Source: Kiritimatiellia bacterium (GTDB taxonomy: Bacteria > Verrucomicrobiota > Kiritimatiellia > RFP12 > UBA3636). Taken from it: 46,561 nucleotides of DNA. The stretch lies in assembly GCA_017457625.1 (NCBI GenBank), contig JAFTHC010000132.1, positions 1 through 46,561 of the forward strand, written 5' to 3'. This document shows positions 2,905-35,257 of this stretch, piece by piece (the stretch's first letter is position 1; every line of letters begins with the position of its first letter). The notes under the pieces were generated by a model. It searched no databases, was not told the DNA's origin, and saw only the letters and a list, made by a program, of their open reading frames with translations. Position numbers and translations under genes: made by a program.

Positions 2905-4461
2905 ATGGAACCCATCCACGAAAACGTAACCGTCCGCGACGACGGCCTCGTCGAAACCGAAAACGGCGCCTTGGCCTTCGCCTCGCACCCGTCCCCCTTC
3001 GCGGACTTCTTCTTCAAGGTGTCGTCCATGCGCCAATGGGACGCCGACGCGAAGCGCGCGGCGTTCCGCAAGTGCCTCGACGCGAACCGGGAGATGGCCC
3101 TCCGCCTCCTCTTCTTCGTCCGCGACATCCGCGGCGGGCTCGGCGAGCGCGGGCTCTTCCGCGACGTCTTCGCCGGCTTGCCGGACGGCGTCGCCGCCGC
3201 GCTCCTCCCCCTCGTCCCCGAATTCGGCCGGTGGGACGACGTTTGGGCCGTCCTCGGCGACGGCGTCGCGGACGCCGCCGCGCGCCCGGTGCTCCGAGAT
3301 GCGGTCTTCGCCATTCTCCGGCGCCGGTGGGAGGAAGACCTCCGCGCCCTCGCCGACCCCGACGGAAGGCCGTCCCTCCTCGCGAAATGGCTCCCGTCGG
3401 TCCGCGGGGTCTCGGCGAAGCAGGAGTCCCTCGCGAAGGAACTCGCGTTCTCGTGCTTCCGCCTCCGCCCCGCGGACTATCGCCGGAAGCTTTCGGCGCT
3501 CCGCGCCCGCCTCCGCGTGACGGAGCGCGCGATGTGCGCCGGCGAGTGGGGCGCCGTCGACTACGGCGCCGTTCCGTCCAAGGCGGCCCTCCGCTACCGC
3601 GCCGCGTTCTCCGCCCACGACCCGGAGCGTTACAAGGCGTATCTCGCCGGCCTCGCGAAGGGAACCTCCAAGGCCAACGCCGACGCCCTCTTCCCCTACG
3701 AAATCGTCGCCGCCTACCTTGACGGCTACGAGCCGAAGGCGGCCGAGGATCCCCTCCTCGAGGCGCAGTGGAGGGCGCTCCCGCTCCCGAAGGGAATCCT
3801 CGGCAACGCCATCGTCGTCCGCGACGGCTCGGGCTCCATGACGACGCCGGTCTCCGGTGGCCGGGCCACGGCGCTCGACGTCGCCACGTCCTTGGCGATC
3901 CTCGCGTCGGAGCACCTCGAGGGCCCCTTCGCGAACCGCTTCATCTCCTTCTCGCAGCTCCCGCGCCTCGTCGACCTCTCCGGTTGCTCCACCCTCCGCG
4001 AGAAACTCGTCCGCACCTACGGGGAAGACGAAACCGCCAACACGGACGTCCAGCGAACCATGCGCCTCGTCCTCGACGCCGTTTCGGAAAACGGGATCCC
4101 GCAGGAGGAAATCCCCGCCGTCGTCATCGTCTCCGACATGGAATTCGACGAGGCCCGCGGAGCCGGATGGTCTTGGCGGACGGATGCGCCGACGCAGGAG
4201 GTCCTCTTCGAGACCATCCGCCGGGAATGGAAGGAGCGGGGCTACGACCTCCCGACGATGGTCTTCTGGAACGTCGCGTCCCGCACCGGCGCCGTCCCGC
4301 TGCAGGAAAACGGAAACGGACTCGTCCTCGCGAGCGGCTTCTCGCAAAACATCCTGGACATGCTGTCCGGGGTCGACCCGGAGGACACCCTCCGCCGCAA
4401 ACTCGCCGCCCCGCGCTACGACCGCGTCGCGGCGGTTTTCCGAGGCGACTCCGCGCAATGA
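2905..4461 (+). CDS. DUF2828 / UCP015417-like protein: helical N-domain plus C-terminal vWA domain with MIDAS motif
   Basis: 518-aa ORF. LFFVRDIRGGLGERGLF signature, and DGSGSM (DxSxS MIDAS) in AIVVRDGSGSMTTPV. The helical + vWA architecture resembles Ro60/TROVE proteins (inference). Confidence 0.65.
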   Translation: MEPIHENVTVRDDGLVETENGALAFASHPSPFADFFFKVSSMRQWDADAKRAAFRKCLDANREMALRLLFFVRDIRGGLGERGLFRDVFAGLPDGVAAALLPLVPEFGRWDDVWAVLGDGVADAAARPVLRDAVFAILRRRWEEDLRALADPDGRPSLLAKWLPSVRGVSAKQESLAKELAFSCFRLRPADYRRKLSALRARLRVTERAMCAGEWGAVDYGAVPSKAALRYRAAFSAHDPERYKAYLAGLAKGTSKANADALFPYEIVAAYLDGYEPKAAEDPLLEAQWRALPLPKGILGNAIVVRDGSGSMTTPVSGGRATALDVATSLAILASEHLEGPFANRFISFSQLPRLVDLSGCSTLREKLVRTYGEDETANTDVQRTMRLVLDAVSENGIPQEEIPAVVIVSDMEFDEARGAGWSWRTDAPTQEVLFETIRREWKERGYDLPTMVFWNVASRTGAVPLQENGNGLVLASGFSQNILDMLSGVDPEDTLRRKLAAPRYDRVAAVFRGDSAQ

Positions 4462-4765: not shown

Positions 4766-5003
4766 GCGGTTCGTCGATTTCGTCGACCGGCCGCGGTGCG
4801 GGGAAGCCGCCTCCCAGGTGTCGGCCGCGACGAAATCGACAAAATCGACGAGGTCGACGAACCTTCGCCGCAAGTCGCACGGGTCGCCTTCGGACTTCCG
4901 TGCGCGGGGCGGCGGCCCCGATTCCGGGCGCACGGGTCGTCTTCGGCCTTCGGTGCGCGGTTCGTCGATTTCGTCGGCATCGTCGATTTCGTCGACCGGC
5001 CGG
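4766..5003. repeat. Composite intergenic repeat: TCGATTT/CGTCGAC short tandem motifs forming a ~100-nt imperfect hairpin (4766-4862), two ~31-nt hairpin units, and a second arm copy (4957-5003)
   Basis: GGTTCGTCGA (4767-4776) pairs with TCGACGAACC (4853-4862). CGCACGGGTCG(C/T)CTTCGG..CGTGCGCGG occurs twice. GCGGGGAAGCCGCC is shared with 8157-8170. Confidence 0.75.
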
Positions 5004-5004
5004 T

Positions 5005-5033
5005 GTTGAAAACGCCGCACCCGGCCGGTAGAC
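5005..5033 (+). promoter_or_regulatory. sigma70-type promoter (leader ~155 nt to 5195)
   Basis: TTGAAA (5005-5010), 17 bp, TAGACT (5028-5033). The flanks (AACGCCGC ... CCGG) match the promoter at 208-236. Confidence 0.55.
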
Positions 5034-5194
5034 TTCCATCAACGGCGCGCGTCCCGTCCGGCATTGGAGCCGACGCTCGCCGGGGGCGGCGGGGGTTATG
5101 CGCTCTAGGCCGGTCCGAATGCCCGGATAACGGTCTGCCACTGTCCTCCCGCCGCCCCGCCTTTCTTTTCCCTCCCTGACCCGATCGAACCGCC

Positions 5195-5602
5195 ATGCTC
5201 AACTTGTCCACATACCCGTACCATTTCAAGGAAACGCCGCTTTCCGAAAGGGAAGTCGAAGTCTTGGTGGAACTCGTCGCGAGGAACGACCAAGAACGAA
5301 TGCGATACTATGTCATCGGGACAATGCATTCCGCCGGATACGATTTGCTGGACTTCCGAAAGAAGCCGTTCGGAGACCTGGTTTTCAAGTTCCGCAAGAA
5401 CCGGAACGTGGATTGGTTCAAGTATTGGGAGTTGAGGGACCGGTGGTATCGCAACCAGGCAAAGGCGGCTGTCGAACACGACCCGCACATGTCTTTCGAG
5501 AGGGCTCTTTCCATGCTCCAACATCCATACTACGGAACGGAGCCTCCGGCGGAACTGCTGCTGTCTTGCACGACGAAAATCGACCCGTCCGCGAAAGACT
5601 GA
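5195..5602 (+). CDS. hypothetical protein (135 aa), start of the lower-GC block
   Basis: ORF track entry. Balanced, non-Arg/Pro-biased composition (W/Y/K/F rich). No motif recognised. Confidence 0.65.
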   Translation: MLNLSTYPYHFKETPLSEREVEVLVELVARNDQERMRYYVIGTMHSAGYDLLDFRKKPFGDLVFKFRKNRNVDWFKYWELRDRWYRNQAKAAVEHDPHMSFERALSMLQHPYYGTEPPAELLLSCTTKIDPSAKD

Positions 5603-5656
5603 CACGCAGAGATCGCAGAGCCATGCGCCGGAACATTTCACGCGGAGTCCGCGGAG
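5603..5656 (+). repeat. Dispersed 9-mer repeat element (CACGCAGAGATCGCAGAG ... CACGCGGAGTCCGCGGAG) followed by a T-tract
   Basis: 5603-5620 and 5639-5656 match the units at 29239-29402, 146-172 (reverse complement) and 46454-46480. ATTTTTGTTTTT follows, so it may act as a terminator. Confidence 0.7.
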
Positions 5657-5789
5657 ATTTTTGTTTTTGGGGTGGCTGCGGCGCCTTGTCTACCGCCATC
5701 CTCCCCGAGAGCGAAGCCGCAATGTGGCCATGTGAAACATTCCTCTACGAGGGAATTTTCGATGAAACAGGAATCATGCGAAAAATCCT

Positions 5790-5818
5790 CTGACATTTTC
5801 CGGGCGAGCCGATATACT
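5790..5818 (+). promoter_or_regulatory. sigma70 promoter, TTGACATTTTC class
   Basis: CTGACA (5790-5795), 17 bp, TATACT (5813-5818). The upstream GAATCATGCGAAA box is shared with 6759-6772. Confidence 0.6.
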
Positions 5819-5840
5819 ATCCTTGGAAAGGAACCGCAAA

Positions 5841-6089
5841 ATGACACCAGAAGAACTCAAAAAAGAACCCAACCGCATCCACAATACCGATTGGGATAGA
5901 AATACGTCCAAAGGGGCAAGCATTATGTGGGATGATTCCGGTTGTGCCTTTGGAACTAATCATTTTTGGTCAGAACAGGCAAAAAAGCGTTGTGAAGAGG
6001 CAATCAAAGACGAAGCGGAAAGGGTAGAAAAGGATATGGCTTATCCGCAGCGGAAACCGCCGATGTTCCGGACGTCGAAACGACGTTGA
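5841..6089 (+). CDS. hypothetical protein (82 aa)
   Basis: The ATG at 5841 is preceded by GGAAAGGAA (Shine-Dalgarno-like). The ATG at 5823 from the ORF track lies at or upstream of the predicted transcription start site (TSS). Confidence 0.55.
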   Translation: MTPEELKKEPNRIHNTDWDRNTSKGASIMWDDSGCAFGTNHFWSEQAKKRCEEAIKDEAERVEKDMAYPQRKPPMFRTSKRR

Positions 6090-6102
6090 ACTGAATCACT
6101 CC
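6070..6102 (+). repeat. 33-nt gene-junction element, copy 1 (GGACGTCGAAACGACGTTGAACTGAATCACTCC)
   Basis: Identical 33-mer at 7458-7490. It contains the hairpin ACGTCG-AAA-CGACGT and supplies the stop codons of two unrelated genes in different frames. Confidence 0.85.
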
Positions 6103-6120
6103 CTTTCAAGACAAACGCCC

Positions 6121-6672
6121 ATGAACGAAACCGAATCCACGACCGCCCCGGCGGACTCCTTTTTCCTCAACCCCTGCACGGATCCCGTCTCCATCCAATA
6201 CTTCCAATCCATTCCGGATGGACACAAGTTTCTGCCGGAAATGAGGTTGTTGCATGCGTTGTTCTACGATTTCGACTCCAACAGCGAGCTCACGGTCCGC
6301 GCCGGGAAGGCCATGACGACGCCCGGCGCCGCCGAAAACGGGACGTTCCCGCGGGAGAACCTGGACGGGAACGACTGGAGCGTGATGCTCCAGGCGGACG
6401 ACCGGTTCGCCCGGTGGTGCGAGTGGGACAGGCTCCGGCCCTCGGACTGGGTCTCGCTGCTGGGGAAAAAGCCGCACTTCGCCGACCGGCTGCCGGAATC
6501 CGTCGAAACCCGGTTTGACGGTTCCGACTGGGCCTTGATTCTGGCGAACAGTCCAGAATTGCAGTCCCGCTGCGACTGGTCGAAACTACAGGACTTCGAC
6601 TGGAATTTCCTCCTGGAAGAACAGCCGCAGTTCGCGGACCGACGGCCCGCGAAGCCGCCGAAAGCCGGGTGA
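6121..6672 (+). CDS. hypothetical repeat protein (183 aa) with ~23-aa DW-x2-LL..P....C-W repeats
   Basis: SDWVSLLGKKPHFADR, FDWNFLLEEQPQFADR, NDWSVMLQADDRFARWCEW and SDWALILANSPELQSRCDW. Confidence 0.6.
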   Translation: MNETESTTAPADSFFLNPCTDPVSIQYFQSIPDGHKFLPEMRLLHALFYDFDSNSELTVRAGKAMTTPGAAENGTFPRENLDGNDWSVMLQADDRFARWCEWDRLRPSDWVSLLGKKPHFADRLPESVETRFDGSDWALILANSPELQSRCDWSKLQDFDWNFLLEEQPQFADRRPAKPPKAG

Positions 6673-6777
6673 AAACGCCGCGCGCGCCGGGTGGACCGTG
6701 GACGGTGAAAGACACCTCCTCCGACACGCCTTGACGAGGGCCTTTTCGAGAAAATCAAGAATCATGCGAAATTCCGT

Positions 6778-6806
6778 TGGCATTTTAGATCCGAACCGAT
6801 ATACTA
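6778..6806 (+). promoter_or_regulatory. sigma70 promoter, TTGACATTTTC class
   Basis: TTGGCA (6778-6783), 17 bp, TATACT (6801-6806). Confidence 0.55.
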
Positions 6807-6828
6807 TGTCAAGAAGGGAAACCGACAG

Positions 6829-6876
6829 ATGACAGACGAGCAATTCAAGAAACTCAATGAACTCGCCTTCCGTTGA
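6829..6876 (+). pseudogene. 15-codon truncated duplicate of the MTxEQFxKLNELA N-terminus (MTDEQFKKLNELAFR)
   Basis: Highly similar by eye at the nucleotide level to the first 39 nt of 7510..7797. Its stop codon lies inside the -35 TTGACA of the next promoter (6873-6878). Confidence 0.4.
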
Positions 6877-6901
6877 CATTTTCAAGTCCCGTTGATATAC
6901 C
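6873..6901 (+). promoter_or_regulatory. sigma70 promoter, TTGACATTTTC class
   Basis: TTGACA (6873-6878), 17 bp, TATACC (6896-6901). GGAAAG lies upstream of the ATG at 6928. Confidence 0.55.
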
Positions 6902-6927
6902 TATGCTTGGAAAGAAACTAAACAACG

Positions 6928-7482
6928 ATGACTACCGAGCGCTACAACGAACTGATGGACCTCGCGGAAACCGCTGATGCCGACAACTCTCTTCGTCAAC
7001 AAAGCAAGGAAAAACCATCCATGTCCCACGATATTCCCCCTCTTGCGTCCATCGACAACGGGAAAGACCTCGCCGAAGCCATGAAGCGGTTCCGGGTGGA
7101 GGCAAAGGAAAAAGCGGATGTCGGCATCCGGAAGTTCACGCCCAACCACCGCGTCTGGGATGTTTCCCTCTACATGGATGGCGAACTCGTCTACCGCACC
7201 GACTTCCAGTCCTGCGACGAGCCGAAGGGAGGGGATGTCTGGCAATGCATCGCCCAAGACGCGATGGCCTACGTGGAGAACCCCGACCTTGCCGACTTCC
7301 TCGAAGGCTTCGGCTTTCTCGACAACGCCGACACCATCCGCGAAGGAATCGCCGCCTACGAGGGTTGCAAGCGCACCTTGGCGGCTTTCCGGGACAAGGG
7401 AGTCGACACCCGCGCCCTTGCCGGACTTTTGAATCGCGCCGAGGCGGCGGAGGTCCTGGACGTCGAAACGACGTTGAACTGA
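6928..7482 (+). CDS. hypothetical protein (184 aa), MTTERYNELMDLA N-terminus
   Basis: ORF track entry with balanced composition. The N-terminal motif is shared with 7510..7797 and 6829..6876. Confidence 0.65.
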   Translation: MTTERYNELMDLAETADADNSLRQQSKEKPSMSHDIPPLASIDNGKDLAEAMKRFRVEAKEKADVGIRKFTPNHRVWDVSLYMDGELVYRTDFQSCDEPKGGDVWQCIAQDAMAYVENPDLADFLEGFGFLDNADTIREGIAAYEGCKRTLAAFRDKGVDTRALAGLLNRAEAAEVLDVETTLN

Positions 7483-7490
7483 ATCACTCC
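7458..7490 (+). repeat. 33-nt gene-junction element, copy 2
   Basis: Identical to 6070-6102. Confidence 0.85.
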
Positions 7491-7509
7491 CCGGAAAGAA
7501 ACCCCACAA

Positions 7510-7797
7510 ATGACAAACGAGCAATTCAACAAACTCAACGAATTGGCCAAAACCGATCCGGATGCCGCTTGCGCCATCCTCGTTGAAGAGCATATCGACG
7601 AGTTGAAGGCCAAGGACAAGAAAGCCCTGTGGATTTCCCGCAACATCGATAAGGCGAGGATGGCGAAAGCATACCGGGAATACCTCGCAGATTGCCGTGG
7701 TTCCGTTATTTGCTGGTGCTGGAAGAACCGCCCATTCCACCCCAATTCCGCAATGGAGTCGCTGAAGAAACTGGAAGACGAACTCACCGTCTGCTAA
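7510..7797 (+). CDS. hypothetical protein (95 aa), MTNEQFNKLNELA N-terminus
   Basis: ORF track entry. Lower-GC codon usage matches its neighbours. Confidence 0.6.
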   Translation: MTNEQFNKLNELAKTDPDAACAILVEEHIDELKAKDKKALWISRNIDKARMAKAYREYLADCRGSVICWCWKNRPFHPNSAMESLKKLEDELTVC

Positions 7798-8111
7798 CTG
7801 TAGGCTATCCCGTTTGCCACTCTTGGCGGGATGGCGTTGCGCCGCTTGGTTCCAGCCCGCAGAGCTGGTTGGAAAGGAACAAAACCCGCAAGGGCCTTGC
7901 GGTCATGCACCCCTAGCGGAAGACGGACTATTTCCGCTTGTTCGGAGGAGGTTGAAGCCCCGGAGGCATGGGCGGCCTTTCGGCAATCCTTCTCCAAACG
8001 TATTTCGGAACTTGGCCCACCCCGCTTTCGGGGACGGCCAAGTTCAGAATCGACTTTTTGCTCGGCCTTTCGTCTACATTCGTGGTTCCTTGGTCTCCGG
8101 CGAAGCGCGAC

Positions 8112-8183
8112 TCGGTCGATTCGGTCGATTCGGTCGCGCCGTCGACCCGCCGCCTTGCGGGGAAGCCGCCCCGCACCGCGGCC
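8112..8183. repeat. Intergenic repeat: TCGGTCGAT 9-mer x3 (8112-8138) plus GCGGGGAAGCCGCCCCGC hairpin / CCGCACCGCGGCC box
   Basis: Tandem 9-mers read directly. 8157-8183 shares GCGGGGAAGCCGCC with 4798-4811, and its 3' end (8174-8183, in the CCGCACCGCGGCC box) is the reverse complement of GGCCGCGGTG at 4788-4797. Confidence 0.7.
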
Positions 8184-8207
8184 ACGCGCGTCCGCGCGAG
8201 AATCCGG

Positions 8208-8236
8208 TTGAATCGCCCCTCCCCCCGTGGTATACT
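8208..8236 (+). promoter_or_regulatory. sigma70-type promoter
   Basis: TTGAAT (8208-8213), 17 bp, TATACT (8231-8236). Confidence 0.55.
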
Positions 8237-8295
8237 TCCTTCCCGGCCCCGCGCGTCCGCGCGACCTTAATTTCAACCCCTTCTCCTTCCCCGCC

Positions 8296-8949
8296 ATGCC
8301 CGATTCCTCCAATCTCTACGCCGTCGCCCGCATCCTGAATTTCGCGGCTCCGAAGCCAGAGACCGTCCAATACGCCAGGGATGTCCGCGTCCTTTCCGAC
8401 GGCCGCGTCGAGCTCGAATGGACCCGCGCCGCGGACGCGGACGGCCTTCGTCCGGACGAGGCGGCGGCGCTTCTCTCGGGGTGCGAGGAGCGCGAAGAAA
8501 AGGATTACCGGTCCCCCGGATGCGTCGAGTCCGACGAATTCCACCTGCTCGTCCTCGAGGACGCCCGCCGCCTCGCGTCCCGTCCGGATCTTTCGCCGGA
8601 GATCCTCCGCGACGAAACGCGCCGTCTGGCCTTCCCCCGGAACGAGCGCATGCCGGAACTCCTCGAGGCGGCCGGCGGCATGCTTTCCGGACGACTCCCC
8701 ACCGGCGACCACGAACCGATGGAACGGGAGGAGTGGGACACGCTGTTCCGGGAAACGGGCCGTCCGCCGGCCTTCGACGCGGGCGCCCGCATCTGGATCC
8801 GATCCCCGGACGCCGTCGTCGCCCGCTGCTCGAACGGGCGACACCTCTGCTGGGATTCCCGCAGGGGATCCATCCGCTTCGTCGAATCCCCGTATTCGGT
8901 ATTCCGAATCCTCGCCCCGCTTCTCCGCGCCGCCGCCCCCCGCGCCTGA
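8296..8949 (+). CDS. hypothetical protein (217 aa)
   Basis: In frame with ORF 8227..8949. The GTG at 8227 overlaps the spacer/-10 junction of the promoter, so the first ATG downstream of the TSS (8296) was chosen. No motif recognised. Confidence 0.55.
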   Translation: MPDSSNLYAVARILNFAAPKPETVQYARDVRVLSDGRVELEWTRAADADGLRPDEAAALLSGCEEREEKDYRSPGCVESDEFHLLVLEDARRLASRPDLSPEILRDETRRLAFPRNERMPELLEAAGGMLSGRLPTGDHEPMEREEWDTLFRETGRPPAFDAGARIWIRSPDAVVARCSNGRHLCWDSRRGSIRFVESPYSVFRILAPLLRAAAPRA

Positions 8950-8957
8950 AATAGTTC

Positions 8958-8986
8958 TCGACGCCGAAACCGCCCCGTGCTATCCT
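8958..8986 (+). promoter_or_regulatory. sigma70-type promoter for the GIY-YIG gene
   Basis: TCGACG (8958-8963), 17 bp, TATCCT (8981-8986). GGGGAG lies before the ATG at 9022. Confidence 0.4.
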
Positions 8987-9021
8987 CGATGCCGTCTTGA
9001 CGACATCCAGGGGAGCGCGCC

Positions 9022-9942
9022 ATGCCGACCATCAAAACGAACTTTTTGCCTGATCTCGGACTGTGGAAGGTTACGCAGTCCTCGCAGACCTGCGTTGCCT
9101 GGCGATTTGATCACGAGTGTCTCGTCGCAATTCTCGCGAAGGACGAATCTCGCCGGACATTGGAGACCCGCGGTGTCTACATCCTCGCGGATGATGCCAC
9201 GCCGACCCACAGGATCGCCTACGTCGGCGAAGCGGAGAATCTGGCAAAGAGGCTCAAGCAGCACGATGGCGAGGCCTTCTGGACCTTCGGCATCGCAATC
9301 TTCGCAAGCAACGACTTTCTTGAAAAGTCGCACATCAAGTATCTTGAGCATTCGCTTTGGAAATTGATTGGAGAGGCAGGCTCCTACACCCTTGAAAACA
9401 AGGCGGAACCAACGAAACCATTCGTGTCCGATCCGGAGAGTCTGGACGACTTCCTTGGTGCGATCAAACTATTCGCGCTTCCCCTGGGCGTCCCGTATCT
9501 GTTTGTTCAAGCGAAGAGTCCGTCTCCGACCCCAACATCTCGGCTCGCATCCGAACTGTACAGCCCGGCCGGAATCTTCGCTGTGTCCGTCGTCGAACTA
9601 GAACGGCGCGGACAGTTGACCGACAAGGACATCCATTATTTTTCGTCCAGAAAGGCGCAGACAGATATCAAGGCTGGCTATGGGGACTGTCCGGCCCTCA
9701 AGAAGGATTCCCGGCGCGAATCGGACTTCAAGAGGAAAGGGATGTGCCGCTACCAGGACCCCGCGAAAATCGTCCTCGTCCACGGAGGAACCCGATACCG
9801 AATCACGACCGAAGTCCACGACGCTTCGGACGGAAGCACGCCCGTCTTTGACTGGGCAATCGGACGCGGAATGACAAACGAGGACATTCTCGCTCTCTGC
9901 GCAAAGCATGGAATCCGTTCGCGACGCAAGAAAGCTACGTAG
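9022..9942 (+). CDS. GIY-YIG-type nuclease domain protein (R-M-associated type, possibly with a DUF4357-like C-terminus)
   Basis: GVYILADD...RIAYVGEAENLAKRLKQH matches the GIY-(10-11)-YIG pattern with a downstream Arg. It lies immediately upstream of the methyltransferase/McrB-like operon. Confidence 0.55.
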   Translation: MPTIKTNFLPDLGLWKVTQSSQTCVAWRFDHECLVAILAKDESRRTLETRGVYILADDATPTHRIAYVGEAENLAKRLKQHDGEAFWTFGIAIFASNDFLEKSHIKYLEHSLWKLIGEAGSYTLENKAEPTKPFVSDPESLDDFLGAIKLFALPLGVPYLFVQAKSPSPTPTSRLASELYSPAGIFAVSVVELERRGQLTDKDIHYFSSRKAQTDIKAGYGDCPALKKDSRRESDFKRKGMCRYQDPAKIVLVHGGTRYRITTEVHDASDGSTPVFDWAIGRGMTNEDILALCAKHGIRSRRKKAT

Positions 9943-9989
9943 CTACATTTCTTTCGTACGCGACTGTCCGGACTGCCGCGATTCGACCC

Positions 9990-10018
9990 TTGCGGGGGAG
10001 GCGGCCATCTGCTACAAT
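9990..10018 (+). promoter_or_regulatory. sigma70-type promoter driving the structured RNA / methyltransferase leader
   Basis: TTGCGG (9990-9995), 17 bp, TACAAT (10013-10018). Confidence 0.6.
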
Positions 10019-10024
10019 CCGCCG

Positions 10025-10283
10025 CATACCCAACCCCACGGAGACCCACTCCACCCAGAACCCCGCCACATAACAACTTAACCTTTTAGCGAACTGCTAA
10101 ACGACGCCATCTCGGAAACCTACCACGCTTCCTACGTCGTCTTTCTGACAAGGTCTGAAACCGGCCTTGTGTCTGTCCATCAAGCAGGACGCGCCCAACT
10201 GGGCGCGTTCTCGCCATGCGACAGACACGGGCCTGTGGTAGGGCCTCCGAGATGGGCATGGATTGAGGACGTGCCCTTTTTTT
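10025..10283 (+). ncRNA. candidate ~260-nt structured RNA (promoter-to-terminator unit): unstructured CA-rich 5' part plus a three-way-junction domain
   Basis: P1: 10107-10116/10246-10255 (10 bp) and 10119-10126/10235-10242 (8 bp). P2: 10148-10153/10165-10170. P3: 10171-10177/10220-10226 with apical 10189-10196/10201-10208 and loop AACT. It ends in a terminator hairpin plus T7. Confidence 0.5.
10254..10283 (+). terminator. intrinsic terminator
   Basis: GGGCATG (10254-10260), 9-nt loop, CGTGCCC (10270-10276), then TTTTTTT (10277-10283). Confidence 0.6.
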
Positions 10284-10300
10284 GCCTCCTTTCCAGCCTC

Positions 10301-10326
10301 GCTCGCGATGCGTTCGCATCGCGAGC
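10301..10326 (+). promoter_or_regulatory. perfect 12-bp inverted repeat abutting the methyltransferase start codon (operator or translation-blocking hairpin)
   Basis: GCTCGCGATGCG-TT-CGCATCGCGAGC, followed directly by the ATG at 10327. Confidence 0.6.
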
Positions 10327-11343
10327 ATGAAACAAGAAACGGCAAAAGGCGGCAAATCAACGCCGCGAATCAAGGAGTTCCACCTCTTCGCCGGAATCGG
10401 CGGCGGAATCTATGGTGGCGAGCTGCTCGGCAACGAGTGCTGCGCGGGCGTTGAGATCATGCCCTACGCGCAGAAGGTCTTGCGCCAGCGGCAGGCGGAC
10501 GGATGGATGCCGGAGTTTCCGCTCTATCCAGATTTGTGCGCGCTGAAGGGCGAACCGCACAAGGGGACGTTCGATGTCCTTTGTGGTGGTTTCCCCTGCC
10601 AGGCGTTCAGCACCGCCGCGCATGGCAAGAACATCGCCGAGAAGAATCTCTGGGGCGAGATGTTCCGGTTCGCGCAGGAGTCGGACGCCCCGGTCGTCTT
10701 CGGCGAGAACGTTGTCCTTCGGGCCATTGAACAGGCCAAGAAGGACCTTGAAAGTGTCGGCTACCAAGTTGAACGAATCCGTCTGAGTTGTTCGGATTTG
10801 GGTGCAGACCACCAGCGGAACCGATTCTGGCTCATGGCCGTCAAGGACTGGAAGGCCTTTGCGCGAATTGCCGCCCATCTTGCTACCTTGCCAAAGCTGA
10901 CGGGGGATTGTTGGACCAAGAGCCCCGAGGAAACCGGCGAGCGTGTCGCCGTGAAGCCGAACGAACGCCGGCAACAGCTTCTCGGTGTCGGCAACGCGCA
11001 GTCGCCCTTCGTCGCCGCGACCGCTTTCCGAATTCTCGCAAATCGCCACCTCAACCACGTTGACGGGCAAAGCGAAGTTGTTTCGGACGAAGAGCTGGCC
11101 AAGGTGTTCGAGAAGAAGGACACATGGATCCAGACGGCCTTTGATCACATCGGTCTCGTGCACACGCCAACCACGATGGCGAACTATGCTTGCAAGTCAA
11201 TGATGAAGCACCAAGGTTGCCGCAACTTCACGCGCGTCTTCGGTCGTCCCGAACCGGAGAACGCCGAATACCTGATGGGCTTCCCGCTCGGCGCCAGCTC
11301 GCCGAATCCGCTTCCGAAAACGAACATTGAAAGGTGGAGGTAA
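10327..11343 (+). CDS. dcm: DNA (cytosine-5)-methyltransferase
   Basis: Motif I FAGIGGG, motif IV GGFPCQAFS, motif VI ENV, and QRNRFW. The start was set at the ATG at 10327 (MKQETAKGG), downstream of the terminator. Confidence 0.9.
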   Translation: MKQETAKGGKSTPRIKEFHLFAGIGGGIYGGELLGNECCAGVEIMPYAQKVLRQRQADGWMPEFPLYPDLCALKGEPHKGTFDVLCGGFPCQAFSTAAHGKNIAEKNLWGEMFRFAQESDAPVVFGENVVLRAIEQAKKDLESVGYQVERIRLSCSDLGADHQRNRFWLMAVKDWKAFARIAAHLATLPKLTGDCWTKSPEETGERVAVKPNERRQQLLGVGNAQSPFVAATAFRILANRHLNHVDGQSEVVSDEELAKVFEKKDTWIQTAFDHIGLVHTPTTMANYACKSMMKHQGCRNFTRVFGRPEPENAEYLMGFPLGASSPNPLPKTNIERWR

Positions 11344-11345
11344 AA

Positions 11346-13115
11346 ATGCCTGTATCTCTTTCCGACGAGATTGACTCGATTATCAAATCCATCCCACTGG
11401 CTAGTAATAGCAGTGCGAAGTACAAAAAACTTCTGCCAAAGCTATCCGAATTATCGGGAGTTGTTGAGTCCGAAATTCATGTGACTGCCGCAAAGGCTCC
11501 TAGCAATGCTGAAGGACGATTGCGAAATGGGAAACATCAAAATCGACACTACGAGCTGTGCTTTCTTCTTGTTTCCTCTGATCGGATTGATGGCGTTGTC
11601 GGTCAATCCAAGAAGCATATTGATGACAATCTTAACGGCTTCTTTAACACTATCGTTGTTATGACGCCATCTGGAACCAACGGAAGGTGGTTGGTTTCGC
11701 ATGTCGTGACAAACAACGAAACCGGTCCCGTTGTTTCGCAACTGCTGGCGGAGTATCCTCAGGCAACAGTGCATAAGGCCGACAACATCACGCTATCGGT
11801 TCAATCAACACACACTTCCGGAATATTCTCATCCTTTGATTGGCCTCTCCAGCGCATTATCTATGGTGCGCCCGGCACAGGAAAATCCCGTACGATCAAA
11901 GACAAGATTACAGATGAGAGCATAGCGAAGGATTGTGTGTTCCGTACGATATTCCACCCTGATTCGGACTATGCATCGTTCGTAGGATGCTACAAGCCGA
12001 AGGTGGAAAGCATCCCGAAAACTGTTGTCATCGGCAAAAACATAGAATGTGCCAAGAGCACCGATCCAATTGTTTTGAACAAAGGGCTTTTGGAAGAAAA
12101 ACGCATTGTCTATACATTCGTTCCTCAGGTCTTCTTGAAGGCGTATACGAAGGCGTGGGAGGAGTTCTCATCCAACGATCCTAGCCCCGTGTTACTCGTG
12201 ATTGAGGAAATTAACCGTGGCAACTGTGCGCAGATCTTTGGCGATCAGTTCCAGCTGCTTGATCGACATACGGAATCTGGTTTTTCTGAGTATCCGATTG
12301 TTCCGGACGATGATATCCGATGCCATCTAGCCTGGGTTCTGGAAAACGCGGCAAAATCCATTTCAGCGGAAAGAAAAGACGAGATTGATGCGGCTCTTTC
12401 CGATGCGACCGAGGCAATGGTGGACTGGGACGATGTGAGTCTCGGAAATGCGCTCGTCCTTCCGCCGAACCTCTACATCTGGGCGACGATGAACACGAGC
12501 GACCAGTCGCTCTTCCCGATCGACAGCGCGTTCAAGCGGCGGTGGGACTGGAAGTACATGCCGATCCGCGAACCGGACCAGAACGAAGACGGTTCGCCGT
12601 GGACGAAATGGAAGATCGAGATTGATGCGCACCGGTACGACTGGTGGACGTTTCTCGGGAAGATCAACGGGTTGATCGGCGCCATGACGGAGTCCGAAGA
12701 CAAGAAGCTCGGCTACTTCTTCGCGAAGGCGGAGCGCGGCGTCATTTCCGCGGAAACGTTCGTCGGGAAGGTCGTGTTCTATCTCTGGCACGACGTGTTC
12801 AAGGACTACGGATTCGAACGGAACGAGTTCCAGGGCGGCAGCGGCGAGAATAAGGAAATCCTTTTCACCGACTTCTTTGAAGCCGATGGAAATCCTAAGA
12901 AGGAGACGATCATCCGTTTTCTGAAAAACCTCGACGTGCCGGACGAAAGCCTGAATACGACACCGCCTTCGCCGGGTGCCGTTCCGGCCGCCGGTTCGGC
13001 CAATGCGATTCCCGCGCCTGCGCCGATCCAACCGCCGCAGGCTGTCGCAACGGTTCCGGGCGGAGCGACCACGCCTTTGCCCACGACTCCGGCGCCGGTT
13101 CCGGCGGCGCCTTGA
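11346..13115 (+). CDS. McrB-like AAA+ GTPase restriction subunit (LlaJI R1-like)
   Basis: Walker A GAPGTGKS, Walker B LLVIEEINRGN, IWATMNTSDQSL and FKRRWDW. GGTGGAGG lies before the ATG at 11346. The C-terminal tail is Pro/Ala-rich. Confidence 0.85.
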   Translation: MPVSLSDEIDSIIKSIPLASNSSAKYKKLLPKLSELSGVVESEIHVTAAKAPSNAEGRLRNGKHQNRHYELCFLLVSSDRIDGVVGQSKKHIDDNLNGFFNTIVVMTPSGTNGRWLVSHVVTNNETGPVVSQLLAEYPQATVHKADNITLSVQSTHTSGIFSSFDWPLQRIIYGAPGTGKSRTIKDKITDESIAKDCVFRTIFHPDSDYASFVGCYKPKVESIPKTVVIGKNIECAKSTDPIVLNKGLLEEKRIVYTFVPQVFLKAYTKAWEEFSSNDPSPVLLVIEEINRGNCAQIFGDQFQLLDRHTESGFSEYPIVPDDDIRCHLAWVLENAAKSISAERKDEIDAALSDATEAMVDWDDVSLGNALVLPPNLYIWATMNTSDQSLFPIDSAFKRRWDWKYMPIREPDQNEDGSPWTKWKIEIDAHRYDWWTFLGKINGLIGAMTESEDKKLGYFFAKAERGVISAETFVGKVVFYLWHDVFKDYGFERNEFQGGSGENKEILFTDFFEADGNPKKETIIRFLKNLDVPDESLNTTPPSPGAVPAAGSANAIPAPAPIQPPQAVATVPGGATTPLPTTPAPVPAAP

Positions 13116-13139
13116 TCCGGAACGCGCCGGAGCCGAAAC

Positions 13140-15443
13140 GTGAGAATCCTCGTCGAAGGATACCCGTACGAAGAGAAGGTCGTCGAGGACGTCCTTCCGG
13201 AGGCGGCACTCCGCAACACGGACAAAAAGGTCGTGTTCGACTATGTCGGATACTGCTTCAACCCCGCGCTCGACGGCGGTAAGGGAGACTGCGTCTTCTT
13301 CCTTCCGAAGGTCGTCCTGAGCCCGGAAGGGACCGGAGCGGACAAACAGGATCTCGTCTTCGGGAAGCGTCCGGAGGAAATCGTCCGCCTGGACGCGGAC
13401 TGCCCGCTCGACGATCCGAGCCGCCGATTCCTCCATGAATTGGCGGCGTGGATTTACCGAGGGCTCGTCGTCTTCCGGAATCGCAACAAGAACAGTGACG
13501 TCCTCAAGGAACGGACGCTGCCTCGCAAGGGCCTTGCCCGGAAGCGCAGGTTGCTGACGCTTCTCGACGTGATGCTCGCGTTGCGCGACTTCGCGAAGGA
13601 GAACCGCGACTTCGTCCTTTTCCAGGTGAAGAACCTCCACCGTGGAATGAACCGGGTCGACTGGAGGAGAACCGTCGCGACGACGCAGGCGGTTGTGGCG
13701 GACGGAACGCCGGTGTATCTTTCGCCCGTCAACCGGAAGCGGGAAATCGACCTGGACGAGGAACTTCTCGTCATCTTCCAATCGATCCTGGCGCACCTCC
13801 GCGACCGCTACGGATTCGAGACGCACACCGACTTCTCCTTCGAACGGATTCCAAAAGCCAAGTTCGAAGCCTGGTTGAAGGGATACGGCAGGCGCAGGCT
13901 TCTCCAGATCAAGTACCGGTACTTCTCCGACCGGACGCTCGAACTCTGGGATCTCTGCTACGCCTTCTTCGACCACACCGGATCGCACGCGGCCGCCGGC
14001 GCGGGCAGGGAATACCTGCTCGCAAAGGACTTCCAGGTCGTCTTCGAGGCGATCATTGACGAGCTGCTCGGCGACCAAAACCTTCCCGATGCCGCCCGGA
14101 AGCTCAAGGAGCAGCGGGACGGAAAACTCGTCGACCACCTCTGGCTGGACGACAGCCTGATCCAAGGACGTTTCGATCAGGTCTACCACATCGGGGACAG
14201 CAAGTACTACAAGATCGGGGAGTCCGTCGGGACGGAATCGCGCTACAAGCAGTTCACCTACGCCCGGAATGTCGTCCAGTGGAATCTCGGACTGTTCCAC
14301 GGAACGAAAGCGGAGCGCGCGAAACGAGCGGGCGCGGGGGCATATGGCGCTTTCAAGCTGCGGGACGACGACACCGAAGGCTATGACATCATTCCGAACT
14401 TCTTCATCAGCGCCGACCTCGACCGAAGCGACCCGACCCATGCAAAGCCGGGCATCGAACCGATTGGAAATCCGGAAATCAGCCGCCAGTTCGAAAACAG
14501 ACTGTTCGACCGCGACACGCTGATCGTGTCGCGCTACAACGTCAACTTCCTGTATGTCCTTTCGCTGTACGCGCGCAACAGCGCGGCGGCAAAGCGGCAA
14601 TGGAGGGAAACCGCAGTTGGACAGTTCCGCGTCAGGATCCGGACTCTCCTGGACGGACTGTTCGAGTTTTCCGCCATGCGCCCGCGTCCGGGGACGGATC
14701 CGGTCCGCTTCCTGCGGGAGAACTTCCGCTACGTGCTCGGCAAGGTTTTCGCGCCGTGGAAAACCGGCGATACCGTCCCGTTCTATTCGCTGGCGTTGGA
14801 CAGATCACCCGAATTTGACGCCGAGAACAAGATCCTGCGAAAGGAACTGGAACGCGGATTTGAAATCGTTCCCTGTCCCCTTGGCGAAGACCCCGCCGCG
14901 CTGTTTCCTTCCACGGTTGCTGCGCCCGTCACGGCGATTCCGGCCGGCGTCCATGTCCCGCTGTATTGGCTGGAACGCTATCCCGAGGACTACATTCTCG
15001 TCGGCTGCTGTCCGGACAAAAAGCACTTTGACTGGTATTTCCGTCGGCACGAGTGGAAACAGATCGATCTTTACAACGTTCGCCTGGGCAATCGCCCGGG
15101 CGCGGTTTCAGTGCTGGCCCAAAACGCCCTCGCAAAGGCTCCGAAATTCCTCGTTCTTTACGAGGATGCGAATGCGCCCGTCAGCAAAGCCTTCCGAATC
15201 GTGGGACACAGGATCGTTTCCAGAAAAGAATTGGAAGCCTCCGGTTATCCAAAGGATCCGGGAAAGACGTCATTCAACTATCTTTGCTACGAACTGGAAG
15301 AGGAGATTTCGTTCGGTTCTCTTGACATTCCCCGGTTGCTAACCGAACGGCAAGCCGAGAATCCATCCACCTATATGCGCGGCATGCCGCTTTTCCTGAA
15401 GGGATCGGAACTGATCGGATATCGAACGAGTTCTCCCGCTTGA
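13140..15443 (+). CDS. McrC / LlaJI R2-like restriction endonuclease subunit with a ~250-aa C-terminal extension
   Basis: 767-aa ORF directly after the McrB-like gene. YHIGDSKYYK resembles the D-x-K-Y core of McrC-type PD-(D/E)xK nucleases. Operon order is MTase, McrB-like, nuclease. Confidence 0.6.
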   Translation: MRILVEGYPYEEKVVEDVLPEAALRNTDKKVVFDYVGYCFNPALDGGKGDCVFFLPKVVLSPEGTGADKQDLVFGKRPEEIVRLDADCPLDDPSRRFLHELAAWIYRGLVVFRNRNKNSDVLKERTLPRKGLARKRRLLTLLDVMLALRDFAKENRDFVLFQVKNLHRGMNRVDWRRTVATTQAVVADGTPVYLSPVNRKREIDLDEELLVIFQSILAHLRDRYGFETHTDFSFERIPKAKFEAWLKGYGRRRLLQIKYRYFSDRTLELWDLCYAFFDHTGSHAAAGAGREYLLAKDFQVVFEAIIDELLGDQNLPDAARKLKEQRDGKLVDHLWLDDSLIQGRFDQVYHIGDSKYYKIGESVGTESRYKQFTYARNVVQWNLGLFHGTKAERAKRAGAGAYGAFKLRDDDTEGYDIIPNFFISADLDRSDPTHAKPGIEPIGNPEISRQFENRLFDRDTLIVSRYNVNFLYVLSLYARNSAAAKRQWRETAVGQFRVRIRTLLDGLFEFSAMRPRPGTDPVRFLRENFRYVLGKVFAPWKTGDTVPFYSLALDRSPEFDAENKILRKELERGFEIVPCPLGEDPAALFPSTVAAPVTAIPAGVHVPLYWLERYPEDYILVGCCPDKKHFDWYFRRHEWKQIDLYNVRLGNRPGAVSVLAQNALAKAPKFLVLYEDANAPVSKAFRIVGHRIVSRKELEASGYPKDPGKTSFNYLCYELEEEISFGSLDIPRLLTERQAENPSTYMRGMPLFLKGSELIGYRTSSPA

Positions 15444-15680
15444 GAGAACTTTCCGATCCGGACGCACGCGGAAGACGAGGGAGGCGATCCGTTCGCGGAG
15501 CGCGGGCGAAGCGTCCCGTCGGGCGGGGCTGGCGGTCGGTCGAGGCTCGCCTCGGAGCGGTTCCGGGACGTCCCGGCCCTGCCGGCGGATTGGAAGAATG
15601 GAGACCCTGGCGGAAAGGACGGAACGCCGCTCTTCCGCAAGGGCGCGGAACGGACGGCGTACGCGAAGGATTCCGGACTC

Positions 15681-15743
15681 GTGGTCCCTCCGGGGCGCGG
15701 CTGCGCCGCGCCGCCGGACGGCCCGGTCTCGCCGCTCCGCGGC
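15681..15743 (+). repeat. ~60-bp direct repeat, copy A (flanks the vsr segment)
   Basis: GTGGTCCCTCCGGGGCGCGGCTGCGCCGCGCCGCCGGACGGCCCGGTCTCGCCGCTCCGCGGC compared with 16461-16520: 6 mismatches plus a 3-nt indel. Confidence 0.8.
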
Positions 15744-16014
15744 TCGGCGTTGGAACTCCGGGCGGCGGATAAATGACATTTTGTCGATTAGTCGCCCGGA
15801 GAGCTTCTCATTTTCGGGCGGCTAAACGACAATTCGGCGATTGGCCGCCCGATTTTGCTTGCATTTTCCGGCCGGTCCTGCGAAGATACGGCGCCATGAA
15901 AACGATTGATTTCATCGTCGGCGCGGACGAACTCTTCGCGGACGCCTGACTCCACCAAGCCCGCTCCGCGCGGGCGCGGAAAGCCGCGGTCGCGCGGAAG
16001 GGACTTCCGAAAAG

Positions 16015-16527
16015 ATGGACACCGTTTCACCAGACACCCGCAGCCGGATGATGTCGGCGATTCACTCGAGGGACACGAAACCGGAGGTGCTCGTGCGGAA
16101 GTTCCTCTGGCTGGAGGGATGGCGGTTCCGGGTCTGCGACAAGAAGATCGAGGGGCATCCCGACATCGTGGTGCCGCGGGCGCACGCGCTCGTGGAAGTA
16201 CGGGGGTGCTTCTGGCACCGGCACGGGTGGACGTGGGACGGACGCAAGCTCGTGCAGGAGGCGGTCTGCGACGACGCGACCTGGCCGAAGTCCAACCGCG
16301 CGTTCTGGAACGACAAGTTCCGGAAGAACGTGAAGCGCGACGAACGCCACGAAGCGCTCTGGCTCGAAGCGGGCTGGCACGTCGCCGTACTCTGGACCTG
16401 CGGGCTCACGCCCGCGAAACGCGACAAGACGCTCGCGTGGCTCGCGAAGAAACTGGAGAAGTGGTCCTTCCGAGGCGCGGCGGCGCCGCGCCGGACGACC
16501 CGATCCCGCCGCTCCGCGGCGCGCTGA
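16015..16527 (+). CDS. vsr: very short patch repair endonuclease
   Basis: SRMMSAIHSRDTKPEVLVRKFL, GHPDIVVP, VEVRGCFWHRH, FWNDKFRKNVKRD and GWHVAVLWTC match the Vsr family pattern. It is linked to a C5-methyltransferase. Confidence 0.9.
   Translation: MDTVSPDTRSRMMSAIHSRDTKPEVLVRKFLWLEGWRFRVCDKKIEGHPDIVVPRAHALVEVRGCFWHRHGWTWDGRKLVQEAVCDDATWPKSNRAFWNDKFRKNVKRDERHEALWLEAGWHVAVLWTCGLTPAKRDKTLAWLAKKLEKWSFRGAAAPRRTTRSRRSAAR
16461..16520 (+). repeat. ~60-bp direct repeat, copy B (forms the 3' end of vsr)
   Basis: See 15681-15743. It contains the palindrome GGCGCGGC-GGC-GCCGCGCC. Confidence 0.8.
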
Positions 16528-16593
16528 AGGCGGTCGGCGACCGTCTTTTCAAGCGCGGCGCCGCCGCGCCTGCCGAGGACGGGCGGATTCGGG

Positions 16594-16622
16594 TTGAATC
16601 TACGCTGCAGCGATGGTACAAT
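16594..16622 (+). promoter_or_regulatory. sigma70-type promoter, leaderless configuration
   Basis: TTGAAT (16594-16599), 17 bp, TACAAT (16617-16622). The ATG at 16629 lies 6 nt after the -10. Confidence 0.65.
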
Positions 16623-16628
16623 GGCGGC

Positions 16629-17588
16629 ATGAACACGAAACTCCCTCCTTGGGACGCCGCGCAGTGGGCGTCCGACTTCTCCGCCGCCTCCAAGGCGCGC
16701 TACGCCGGCGACTATGCCGCCGCCGACACCCTCCACGACCTCCGCGCCCGCGTCTTCGCGGACACCGTCGAGCGCGTCCGCGCGGGCGGATACACCCTCG
16801 CGGACGGCACGCGCGTCGACCTCCCCTTCTCCCCGACCGTCGGGGACGACACGCGGTTCTACGACCGCGAGCTTCCCGCCGGCCCCGCCGCCGCGCCGGA
16901 CGCCGCGCTGGCGCCCGTCGAGGTCCGCGAGGGCGACTGCCTCGTCGCCGCGCGCGAGCTCGTCGAAGCGGGCGAGGGCGAGGTCTGCGTCCTCAACATG
17001 GCGAGCCGCAGCAACCCCGGCGGCGGCGTCCACACCGGCGCCGGCGCGCAGGAGGAGCACCTCTTCCGCTCGTCGGACTACTTCCGCTCGCTCTACCGGT
17101 TCGTCGACTACGGCGCGTCCTACGGCGTCCCGCGCGCGGCGGAGTCGTATCCGCTCGACCGCGACCACGGCGGCGTCTTCTCGCGCGGGGTCACGGTCTT
17201 CCGCGGCCCGGAGCGCGAGGGCTACCCCCTCCTCGCAAAGCCGTGGCGGTGCAACTTCGTCGCCGTCCCGGCCATTTCGAACCCCGCCACGGTCCCCGGC
17301 CCGGATGGCGCCCCGCGCCTGACGCCCGCGATGGAGGCGGCGACGCGGCGCAAGATTCGCGCCATTCTCCGCATCGCCCGCGAGAACGGGCAGCGGGCGC
17401 TCGTCCTCTCGGCGTTCGGCTGCGGCGCGTTCCGCAACCCGCCGCGCCACATGGCCGAGCTCTTCCGCGACGAGCTCGCCGCCCCGGAGTTCCGCGCCGC
17501 GTTCGACCGCGTCGTCTTCTCCGTCATCGACGACCACAACGCCCGCGGCGAGGGCAACGTGAAGCCCTTCCGCGAGGTCTTCGTGTAG
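16629..17588 (+). CDS. microbial PARG-like macrodomain protein (TIGR02452 / DUF2263 type)
   Basis: VLNMASRSNPGGGVHTGAGAQEEHLFRSSDYFRSLY and LVLSAFGCGAFRNPP are the hallmark motifs. It is in frame with ORF 15906..17588. The start was set at MNTKLPPW after the promoter. Confidence 0.8.
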   Translation: MNTKLPPWDAAQWASDFSAASKARYAGDYAAADTLHDLRARVFADTVERVRAGGYTLADGTRVDLPFSPTVGDDTRFYDRELPAGPAAAPDAALAPVEVREGDCLVAARELVEAGEGEVCVLNMASRSNPGGGVHTGAGAQEEHLFRSSDYFRSLYRFVDYGASYGVPRAAESYPLDRDHGGVFSRGVTVFRGPEREGYPLLAKPWRCNFVAVPAISNPATVPGPDGAPRLTPAMEAATRRKIRAILRIARENGQRALVLSAFGCGAFRNPPRHMAELFRDELAAPEFRAAFDRVVFSVIDDHNARGEGNVKPFREVFV

Positions 17589-32592: not shown

Positions 32593-32600
32593 CCGGGGCG

Positions 32601-35150: not shown

Positions 35151-35153
35151 GGC

Positions 35154-35192
35154 GGTCGGATGGTCGGATGGTCAAATGGTCGGATGGGCGGA
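35154..35192. repeat. 7-8-nt tandem array GGTCGGAT (reverse complement of the CCGACCAT family) in the divergent glgP/clpC intergenic region
   Basis: GGTCGGATGGTCGGATGGTCAAATGGTCGGATGGGCGGA read directly. Confidence 0.75.
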
Positions 35193-35257
35193 CGGGGCGG
35201 GGTGGGTGAAAAACGGCGCGCGAGTCTAGCAAAACCGCCACGGCGGGGCAAGCGGCC

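Follow-up and report, generated by a model that had tools for sequence, protein, structure and literature searches.

The window analysed here is the whole stretch of 46,561 nucleotides from a Kiritimatiellia bacterium (contig JAFTHC010000132.1). Its G+C content is about 70%, and a lower-GC island (50–62%) spans roughly 5 to 16 kb (window 5000–16000). In this island the gene of a GIY-YIG protein is followed, after a gene-free interval (9943–10326), by three genes of a restriction-modification (R-M) operon. The interval holds an RNA element, here called the leader, which probably works as a transcription attenuator for the operon. The genes that frame it are the following:

9022–9942, + strand: GIY-YIG protein of 306 aa; PADLOC candidate single-gene defence family PDC-S14 (E = 1e-29), phrog_12629
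10327–11343, + strand: C5 DNA methyltransferase, first gene of the operon; PF00145 (E = 5e-22)
11334–13115, + strand: McrB-like ATPase; PF07728, a weak match
13140–15443, + strand: LlaJI-like nuclease; PF09563 (E = 8e-6)

The open reading frames (ORFs) of the methylase, the McrB-like protein and the nuclease are consecutive, overlapping or abutting, and all are on the + strand; the operon has PADLOC matches as well. With a C5 methylase, a McrB-like NTPase and a LlaJI-family nuclease the operon has the composition of the LlaJI type, and the same trio is also present at three other loci that carry the leader (L051, L078 and L087). The type LlaJI system has two methylase genes, whereas the window operon has one. 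Public gene calls, made on four metagenome scaffolds with an identical methylase, agree with the operon and leave the interval empty. The original prediction, made by a model from the sequence alone, had likewise seen no convincing ORF here; the antisense ORFs 10086–10373 and 10097–10360, which it set aside as shadow frames, exist mechanically, and so does an ORF at 10169–10330 on the + strand. That these frames represent a short protein-coding gene on either strand is hardly credible in view of the empty gene calls, the many 1- and 2-nt indels among the related sequences, and a variation that falls in compensated paired columns and not in third codon positions.

Relatives of the leader were searched for at 33 GTDB loci with related methylases (58–81% identical), using blastn, nhmmer, a profile hidden Markov model and a covariance model, and were found only in L003, an uncultured Lentisphaeraceae metagenome-assembled genome. 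The element of L003 is 71% identical, lies upstream of the methylase and has four compensatory pairs in its closing helix. Co-transfer of the leader with the methylase was rejected, as 32 of the 33 loci have a related methylase without it, and the comparison indicates that the R-M genes have spread widely by horizontal transfer without the leader. The methylase relatives (L001–L033) belong to Kiritimatiellae, Fibrobacter, many Bacteroidales, Eggerthellaceae and one Methanomethylophilaceae archaeon, all from animal guts.

A block common to the window and L003 gave the 18-nt pattern GGCCTGTGGTAGGGCNTCC, with which metagenome contigs were scanned. The scan returned 83 loci; about 70 of them are true homologues (nhmmer E-values 1e-11 to 1e-52) and the rest are chance matches. 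The G+C content of the homologous loci ranges from 38% to 64%. Two divergent copies, L086:1630–1807(−) and L070:2219–2386(−), were met by chance in the flanks and support a wider family, and it is probable that the real family extends beyond the retrieved set. No blastn match to the window element or to the consensus-like L087 was seen among the PLSDB plasmids and the INPHARED phages, and IMG/VR gave 0 matches to two conserved patterns. The RNA is also absent from the catalogue of known families, as had been supposed from the sequence. Rfam 15 at gathering thresholds gave 0 matches over the whole window, the best match in 9850–10450 at E <= 10 was a terminator-like ctRNA match of 17 bits, and at 17 homologous loci the element drew only scattered matches of the microRNA hairpin type. 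The covariation counts given below refer to an alignment of 52 sequences (A5).

All features listed in the original prediction are present in the sequence at the positions given there. The parts that lie outside the folded core of the leader are:

9990–10018, + strand: promoter-like site, with TTGCGG (9990–9995), a 17-nt spacer and TACAAT (10013–10018)
10025–10083, + strand: C/A-rich, G-poor 5' spacer of 59 nt (49% C, 34% A, 8% G)
10085–10101, + strand: P0 hairpin, UUUAGC-gaacu-GCUAAA; 92.5% of cells paired, one compensatory change from A-U to G-C
10303–10324: inverted repeat, UCGCGAUGC-guuc-GCAUCGCGA; 90.9% paired, four pairs changed on both sides

The promoter-like site matches the consensus at 8 of 12 positions, which is below the threshold of the consensus scan, and the scan did not call a promoter. 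A TG at 10010–10011 gives it an extended −10 box, TGcTACAAT (10010–10018), and a TGnTAnAnT box is found at the same distance upstream in most homologues, which agrees with the promoter first proposed. The spacer after it is CA-rich as described; the family mean is 30% C, 40% A and 15% G, and by its composition it looks like a rut-like (Rho-loading) or a stabilising sequence. A GGAG in the spacer (10040–10043) is conserved across the alignment, and a leader peptide was rejected because no start codon follows it. At the other end, the inverted repeat, which is conserved, stops 2 nt before the ATG of the methylase, with no Shine-Dalgarno sequence between. Its mismatches comprise 17 G.U and 22 A.C, and with counts so similar an RNA hairpin and a DNA operator are not told apart; the repeat may be either of the two.

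The + strand of 10084–10283 folds at −106.5 kcal/mol, as compared to −75.2 ± 4.3 in dinucleotide shuffles (z = −7.24, equalled by 0 of 200 shuffles); the − strand gives z = −5.17. The closing helix that had been drawn from 10107–10126 with 10235–10255 corresponds to P1 plus P2, and the two hairpins inside it to P4 and P5, both of which appear in the minimum-free-energy fold. These helices make up the first of two folds, fold A:

10107–10115 with 10247–10255, + strand: P1, closing helix; 7 of 9 pairs changed on both sides, with as many as five pair types at one position
CUACCACG (10120–10127) with UGUGGUAG (10234–10241), + strand: P2; 99.5% paired, invariant in the set
10149–10169, + strand: P4 hairpin; 4 of 6 pairs compensatory, 75% of cells paired
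10170–10227, + strand: P5 hairpin, putative antiterminator; its base P5a (10170–10177 with 10220–10227) has 8 of 8 pairs compensatory
10186–10196 (a) with 10201–10211 (a'), + strand: P5b, GC-rich apical stem; 94.5% paired

Over fold A as a whole 91.3% of cells are paired, and 374 cells carry double changes against 120 ± 11 in shuffles; the observed covariation score was reached by 0 of 500 shuffles. When the partners were slid by 1–3 columns the pairing fell to 34–45%. The covariation check on collected homologues that had been suggested for this RNA has thereby been made, and it found the compensatory pairs of P1 and P5a given above. P2 does covary in the divergent copy at L086, where the helix is the compensated CGACCAA/UUGGUCG. 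A kink-turn in the internal loop between P1 and P2 was rejected by eye, the loop sequences being without the tandem G.A motif.

The 3' part of the leader can also pair in another way. In this second fold, fold B, three helices form one long hairpin that ends at a run of U:

10201–10212 (a') with 10265–10276 (a2), + strand: T1, putative terminator stem; 98.1% paired, compensatory at 4 pairs
CCAUGC (10214–10219) with GCAUGG (10256–10261), + strand: T2; 99% paired, alternating between A-U, G-C and G.U
GGGCCU (10229–10234) with GGGCCU (10241–10246), + strand: T3; 100% paired
10277–10283, + strand: run of seven U directly after a2

A run of at least 4 U follows a2 in 52 of the 52 sequences. The original prediction had placed a local hairpin (10254–10259 with 10271–10276) before the seven T at 10277–10283. 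Both can be seen in the window and the T run stands, but the hairpin is not conserved: in 51 of 52 relatives one of the six pairs is broken, and covariation is absent. The conserved terminator stem is, according to the alignment, the long-range pairing a':a2, which had been overlooked. A simple terminator scan missed the terminator as well, its loop being longer than 8 nt. When all column runs of the alignment were compared against all for complementarity and covariation, P1 came first, P5a second and a':a2 third, with the apical stem later. Slid partners gave 32–54% pairing in this fold. The segment a' pairs better with a2 than with a (98.1% as compared to 94.5%), and in L003 a carries a U-U mismatch with a' at a position where a2 keeps a U-A pair. 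The two folds are incompatible within one nested structure, because a' is common to both and P1 and P5a cross T1. The minimal variant, the second copy at L070, lacks P4 and keeps only P1, P2, a/a'/a2 and the U run, which is exactly the core of the switch.

The helices T1 to T3 contain 247 G.U pairs but only 6 A.C mismatches, and therefore the terminator structure exists only in the + strand RNA. A covariance model built from 42 homologues points the same way; it gives the window a score of 143 bits for the + strand, as against only 22 bits for the − strand. Both results argue against the leader being an element of the DNA itself, such as a recombination site, a transposon end or an anchor for cassette swapping, with a structure that is incidental or forms in single-stranded DNA. 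One could think of such an element since the leader occurs in front of genes that are unrelated, sits in low-GC defence islands, once beside a tmRNA gene, and in four cases combines different 'alleles' of P1, as expected from crossovers inside a conserved core. However, the leader always has the orientation of the gene that follows, it has a promoter ahead of it and a U run, and terminal repeats and a transposase are lacking alongside; we regard an element of this kind as very improbable. Recombination at the leader can, moreover, be compatible with a function as RNA. On the sequences at hand the leader is a conserved and strand-specific RNA family of uncultured bacteria from gut and rumen, and it stands ahead of their R-M genes and related defence genes. 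The tmRNA gene mentioned is full-length (L081:1843–2199(−), 165 bits) and about 400 nt from the leader copy, which suggests that the island with this leader was inserted beside ssrA.

Divergence within the leader is very uneven. In pairs of leaders that differ by 3.4% elsewhere, the 5-nt core of P1 (window 10109–10113 with 10249–10253) differs at about 45% of positions and P5a (10170–10177 with 10220–10227) at about 40%, and still the complementarity is always kept. The 52 sequences hold 21 distinct versions of the P1 core and 38 of P5a. The four leaders in which the strands of P1 come from different alleles are L078:140–391, L112:912–1153(−), L100:761–1019 and L103:2829–3098(−), and these may be natural recombinants or assembly chimeras. 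In L078 the two strands of P5a also come from different variants and are mismatched, and this is the only sequence whose terminator fold is computed to win.

All leaders lie immediately ahead of the next gene and run in its direction. Where a locus has sequence downstream, the homology nearly always stops right at the start of a + strand ORF or within a few bases of it. The first downstream ORFs (n = 60) were classed by a Pfam scan, which cluster representatives confirm:

C5 methylase: 30
EcoRI-type N6A methylase: 6
D12/Dam class: 4
N6_N4 class, including a Type III Mod followed by a Res helicase: 4
Type I HsdM-like: 1
MutH/Sau3AI-like nuclease: 1
Acyl_transf_3: 2
TPR protein: 2
Zinc-ribbon protein: 2
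GT87-like, one of several membrane proteins: 1

A DNA methyltransferase is the first downstream gene in about 45 of the 60 cases, and these enzymes come from five unrelated Pfam families. The leader closest to that of the window, L110, precedes a Dam-class enzyme and not a C5 methylase. The upstream neighbours vary, among them an ORF6N protein, a DUF1016 nuclease, GIY-YIG proteins and a pair that by eye resembles a PIN-type toxin-antitoxin, and are typical island genes. The GIY-YIG gene upstream in the window was rejected as a partner, since homologues of it (26% identity) precede the leader only in L038 and L087. Judging from these neighbourhoods, the leader is not inherited with any one gene and is a module that stands before defence-type genes, mostly methylases.

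This arrangement also bears on two functions that had been proposed for the RNA. One was that it times the methylase against the nuclease. The leader lies upstream of the whole operon of methylase, McrB-like protein and nuclease and so cannot separate the two, and it stands, moreover, before methylases from five unrelated families and before some genes outside R-M systems; a timing role of this sort is not supported. The other was a trans-acting RNA component of the R-M system. The leader would then be an independent gene for a small RNA of about 260 nt that has a promoter and a terminator to itself and acts as a defence component or like an antitoxin, while the methylase is transcribed separately. 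The element is indeed bracketed by a promoter-like site and a terminator, terminated leader RNAs reportedly act in trans elsewhere (rnTrpL, PMC6614838), and single contigs carry several copies together with shortened ones, described below. Against this, the element always abuts the next gene in the same orientation, and the gap between the U run and the ATG is only about 20–45 nt, filled by the inverted repeat and without a promoter motif, so that the operon depends on read-through. In addition, the downstream genes vary and no conserved target in trans is evident, 9900–10400 contains no tandem repeats of the ToxI type, and Pfam and PADLOC show no reverse transcriptase or Cas-type partner nearby. 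A trans-acting RNA therefore appears quite unlikely. Retron, ToxI, CRISPR/tracr and defence-associated reverse transcriptase (DRT) RNAs were rejected on the same grounds: partner genes (Pfam, PADLOC) and tandem repeats (9900–10400) are lacking, and the neighbours vary.

The leader is instead likely to be a transcription attenuator of the terminator/antiterminator type for the methylase/McrB-like/LlaJI-like operon, a reading well supported by its anatomy. It has a 5' leader position, its structure is compensatory, and its terminator stem competes with an antiterminator pairing. As to anatomy, the cis-acting attenuator suggested in the original prediction is borne out by the two mutually exclusive, covarying folds, one of which is a terminator stem with a U run. 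Transcription would start near 10025, from the extended −10 promoter. In fold A the long-range helices P1 and P2 would close a three-way junction bearing P4 and P5; the tip of P5, a:a', would sequester a', the segment ahead of the U run would be left unpaired, and the polymerase would continue into the operon. In fold B the 5' strands of P2 and P1 would fail to capture their 3' partners, and these would fold locally, first into T3 and then into T2, and a2 would displace a from a' to give the long hairpin at the U run, with a stop at about 10283, before the methylase. The 3' strand of P1 ends 9 nt ahead of a2, which leaves a narrow window for the decision. The choice of fold would set the read-through into the operon, and some factor would in turn set the choice. 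Candidates for it would be a small ligand or a protein, acting at the junction or at an early 5' hairpin which shows one strand of P2:

10101–10140, + strand: possible early or alternative hairpin, with ACGACG (10101–10106) paired to CGUCGU (10135–10140) and GGAA (10114–10117) to UUCC (10129–10132)

ViennaRNA predicts this hairpin once the terminator is enforced, and the 5' strand of P2 is shown in its loop. A plausible route to the two folds would then be that the early hairpin displays the P2 5' strand, and that capture by the 3' partner closes P2 and P1 and so fixes fold A. Without this capture the 3' strands would fold locally into T3 and T2, and a2 would invade P5b. The pairings ACGACG/CGUCGU and CUGCU/AGCAG are both nearly invariant, so covariation cannot separate a pseudoknot from the alternative hairpin.

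The hairpin is also found in a set of 'short leaders', in which the promoter box, the GGAG, P0 and the ACGACG..CGUCGU hairpin are kept and P4, P5 and the terminator are not:

L087:7486–7551(−)
L087:4683–4721(−)
L058:4856–4923(−)
L114:4410–4484(+)
L039:1156–1202(−)
L082:69–115(+)

They lie on the same contigs as full leaders and keep the alternative 5' hairpin intact although they have no 3' half. Since they carry the same 5' module, a common factor acting on the 5' hairpin is conceivable. The short leaders precede island genes other than methylases, namely ORF6N/RhuM-like genes, GIY-YIG genes of PDC-S14, and a pair resembling, by eye, a VapBC/PIN toxin-antitoxin.

Several points weigh against a switch of this kind, or against the evidence for it. 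By ViennaRNA, fold A is the more stable fold in 51 of 52 sequences, and its mean advantage over fold B is 15 kcal/mol. As isolated hairpins the terminator is only slightly more stable than P5 (means of −41 and −34), and P5 still beats the terminator within the same segment when the 5' strands are left out. With fold A favoured to this extent, the computations make read-through the default, and for termination a kinetic route or some factor is required. Neither a ligand nor a binding protein came to light, nor a regulator conserved among the neighbours. In the alternative 5' hairpin 95% of cells are paired but there is almost no covariation, and thus it rests on conservation. Every homologue but L003 was retrieved through the exact 18-nt pattern of P2, which inflates the conservation of that block; the invariance of the block and of its P2 partner is therefore partly an artefact. 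The homologues are furthermore related to one another, so the cell counts overstate the number of independent events.

The same energies are what a fixed, unregulated leader would give. Such a leader would always be in fold A, and it would serve to stabilise the mRNA, to shield the operon from transcription arriving from upstream, or to let a steady part of transcription through a weak terminator and so hold R-M expression low, with no sensing. The strong preference for fold A in 51 of 52 sequences and the lack of an effector agree with it, and low, steady expression is reportedly adequate for R-M systems, according to one study (PMC7315355). What it hardly explains, if the terminator fold never forms, is why selection should retain in all of the 52 sequences, compensatory changes included, a 12-bp complement of a' right before the U run. 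Nor would three nested alternative helices be needed for stability alone. We therefore find a fixed leader rather unlikely, and the attenuator remains the preferred explanation.

Leaders that choose between a terminator and an antiterminator are well known, for instance SAM-I and T-box, and the protein-dependent PyrR, TRAP and LicT/RAT. The leader resembles such riboswitch and attenuator platforms in being the 5' leader of an operon, with a multi-helix domain closed by a long-range P1, and in a' being common to the antiterminator hairpin and the terminator stem with its U run. Unlike the known ones, it matches no Rfam 15 model, and its read-through fold is computed to be far more stable. A riboswitch for S-adenosylmethionine (SAM) or S-adenosylhomocysteine (SAH) is not supported, as no Rfam SAM or SAH match was obtained in the window and the 17 loci. 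SAM is also unlikely as the trigger because some of the targets are Acyl_transf_3, GT87-like, TPR and zinc-ribbon proteins, although about 45 of 60 use SAM. A T-box was rejected: cmscan gave no match, and the resemblance seen in GUGGUA/UACCAC is the leader's own P2 helix.

Leader-dependent antitermination is a feature of the specialised NusG paralogues (UpxY in the capsule loci of Bacteroides, and LoaP) and of the antiterminator RNAs put and EAR. As in these systems, many loci of one lineage have a long, conserved 5' leader that bears a terminator, and the targets include horizontally acquired genes and genes for surface modification. The difference is that no NusG-like gene is seen beside any locus, and that the antiterminator pairing is encoded in the leader RNA itself.

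To our knowledge, DNA methylases, R-M operons and the few envelope-modifying enzymes met here are a class of genes not previously tied to attenuator leaders. Control of R-M systems has been reviewed as acting through C proteins, autorepression by methylases bearing a helix-turn-helix (HTH), promoter methylation (LlaJI), antisense RNAs (EcoRI, Eco29kI) and translational effects (PMC3874152, PMC12707154). Neither review names a riboswitch, a leader or an untranslated region for R-M genes, or attenuation in the regulatory sense. The leader is like the known forms of control in that it heads an R-M operon, which needs restraint, and it occurs with many R-M types. The known forms act via DNA-binding proteins or antisense transcripts, whereas the leader is RNA, and in the window no C or HTH gene adjoins the operon. 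Control by a C protein was rejected for the window, where Pfam and PADLOC reveal no C gene and no small HTH controller gene among the ORFs in 6121–15443. Nor can the leader depend on the DNA specificity of one enzyme, since it stands before five unrelated methylase families. Full-text searches of the literature brought up no description of such a leader, and a comparable motif for methylases or R-M systems is mentioned neither in Weinberg 2017 nor in Narunsky 2024. For restriction-modification genes the leader may be the first RNA attenuator seen.

Other genes of the window were also looked at. In the low-GC island (window 5000–16000) no tRNA and no integrase were seen, and four ORFs (6121–6672, 6928–7482, 7814–8338 and 8381–9367) have no match in Pfam, PHROG or PADLOC. 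Just beyond the island, 15906–17588 (+) encodes a protein with a microbial-type PARG catalytic domain and 19057–20778 (+) a fusion resembling a PfkB kinase and a nucleoside 2-deoxyribosyltransferase; this pair may be another defence module related to nucleotides or ADP-ribose. A protein with DUF2828 and DUF7788 (E = 2e-29 and 7e-37) is encoded at 2905–4461 (+). Finally, a mechanical ORF of 2025 aa at 31845–37922 (+) has a complete ClpB (Clp_N, two AAA modules and D2-small) confined to its last ~800 residues, and its long N-terminal part is probably non-coding, an open-frame artefact of the high GC.

The presence of one leader before five unrelated methylase families points to a common input on many defence loci in uncultured gut and rumen bacteria. 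Whether this goes as far as one signal over unrelated anti-phage and surface-variation genes of gut bacteria of the Planctomycetes-Verrucomicrobia-Chlamydiae (PVC) group, received through a sensing RNA of a new class (a riboswitch, or an RNA to which a dedicated protein binds), is a more speculative matter, and we hold it as a tentative idea that is more doubtful than the attenuator itself. If true, the targets would be R-M systems of Types I, II and III and the LlaJI-like one, O-acyltransferases and membrane glycosyltransferases, and P1 and P5a would be copy-specific 'barcodes' against mispairing of co-resident leaders, which would silence recombinant chimeras. With a core that is nearly frozen and P1 and P5a so variable, the leaders are in any case useful for studying how multi-copy regulatory RNAs evolve. 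The leader is an orphan among structured RNAs, well defined, clear in its covariation and with termination as an obvious read-out, which makes the search for a ligand or a protein directly testable. The family would add control by termination and read-through in an RNA to the known ways of keeping R-M genes safe for their host.

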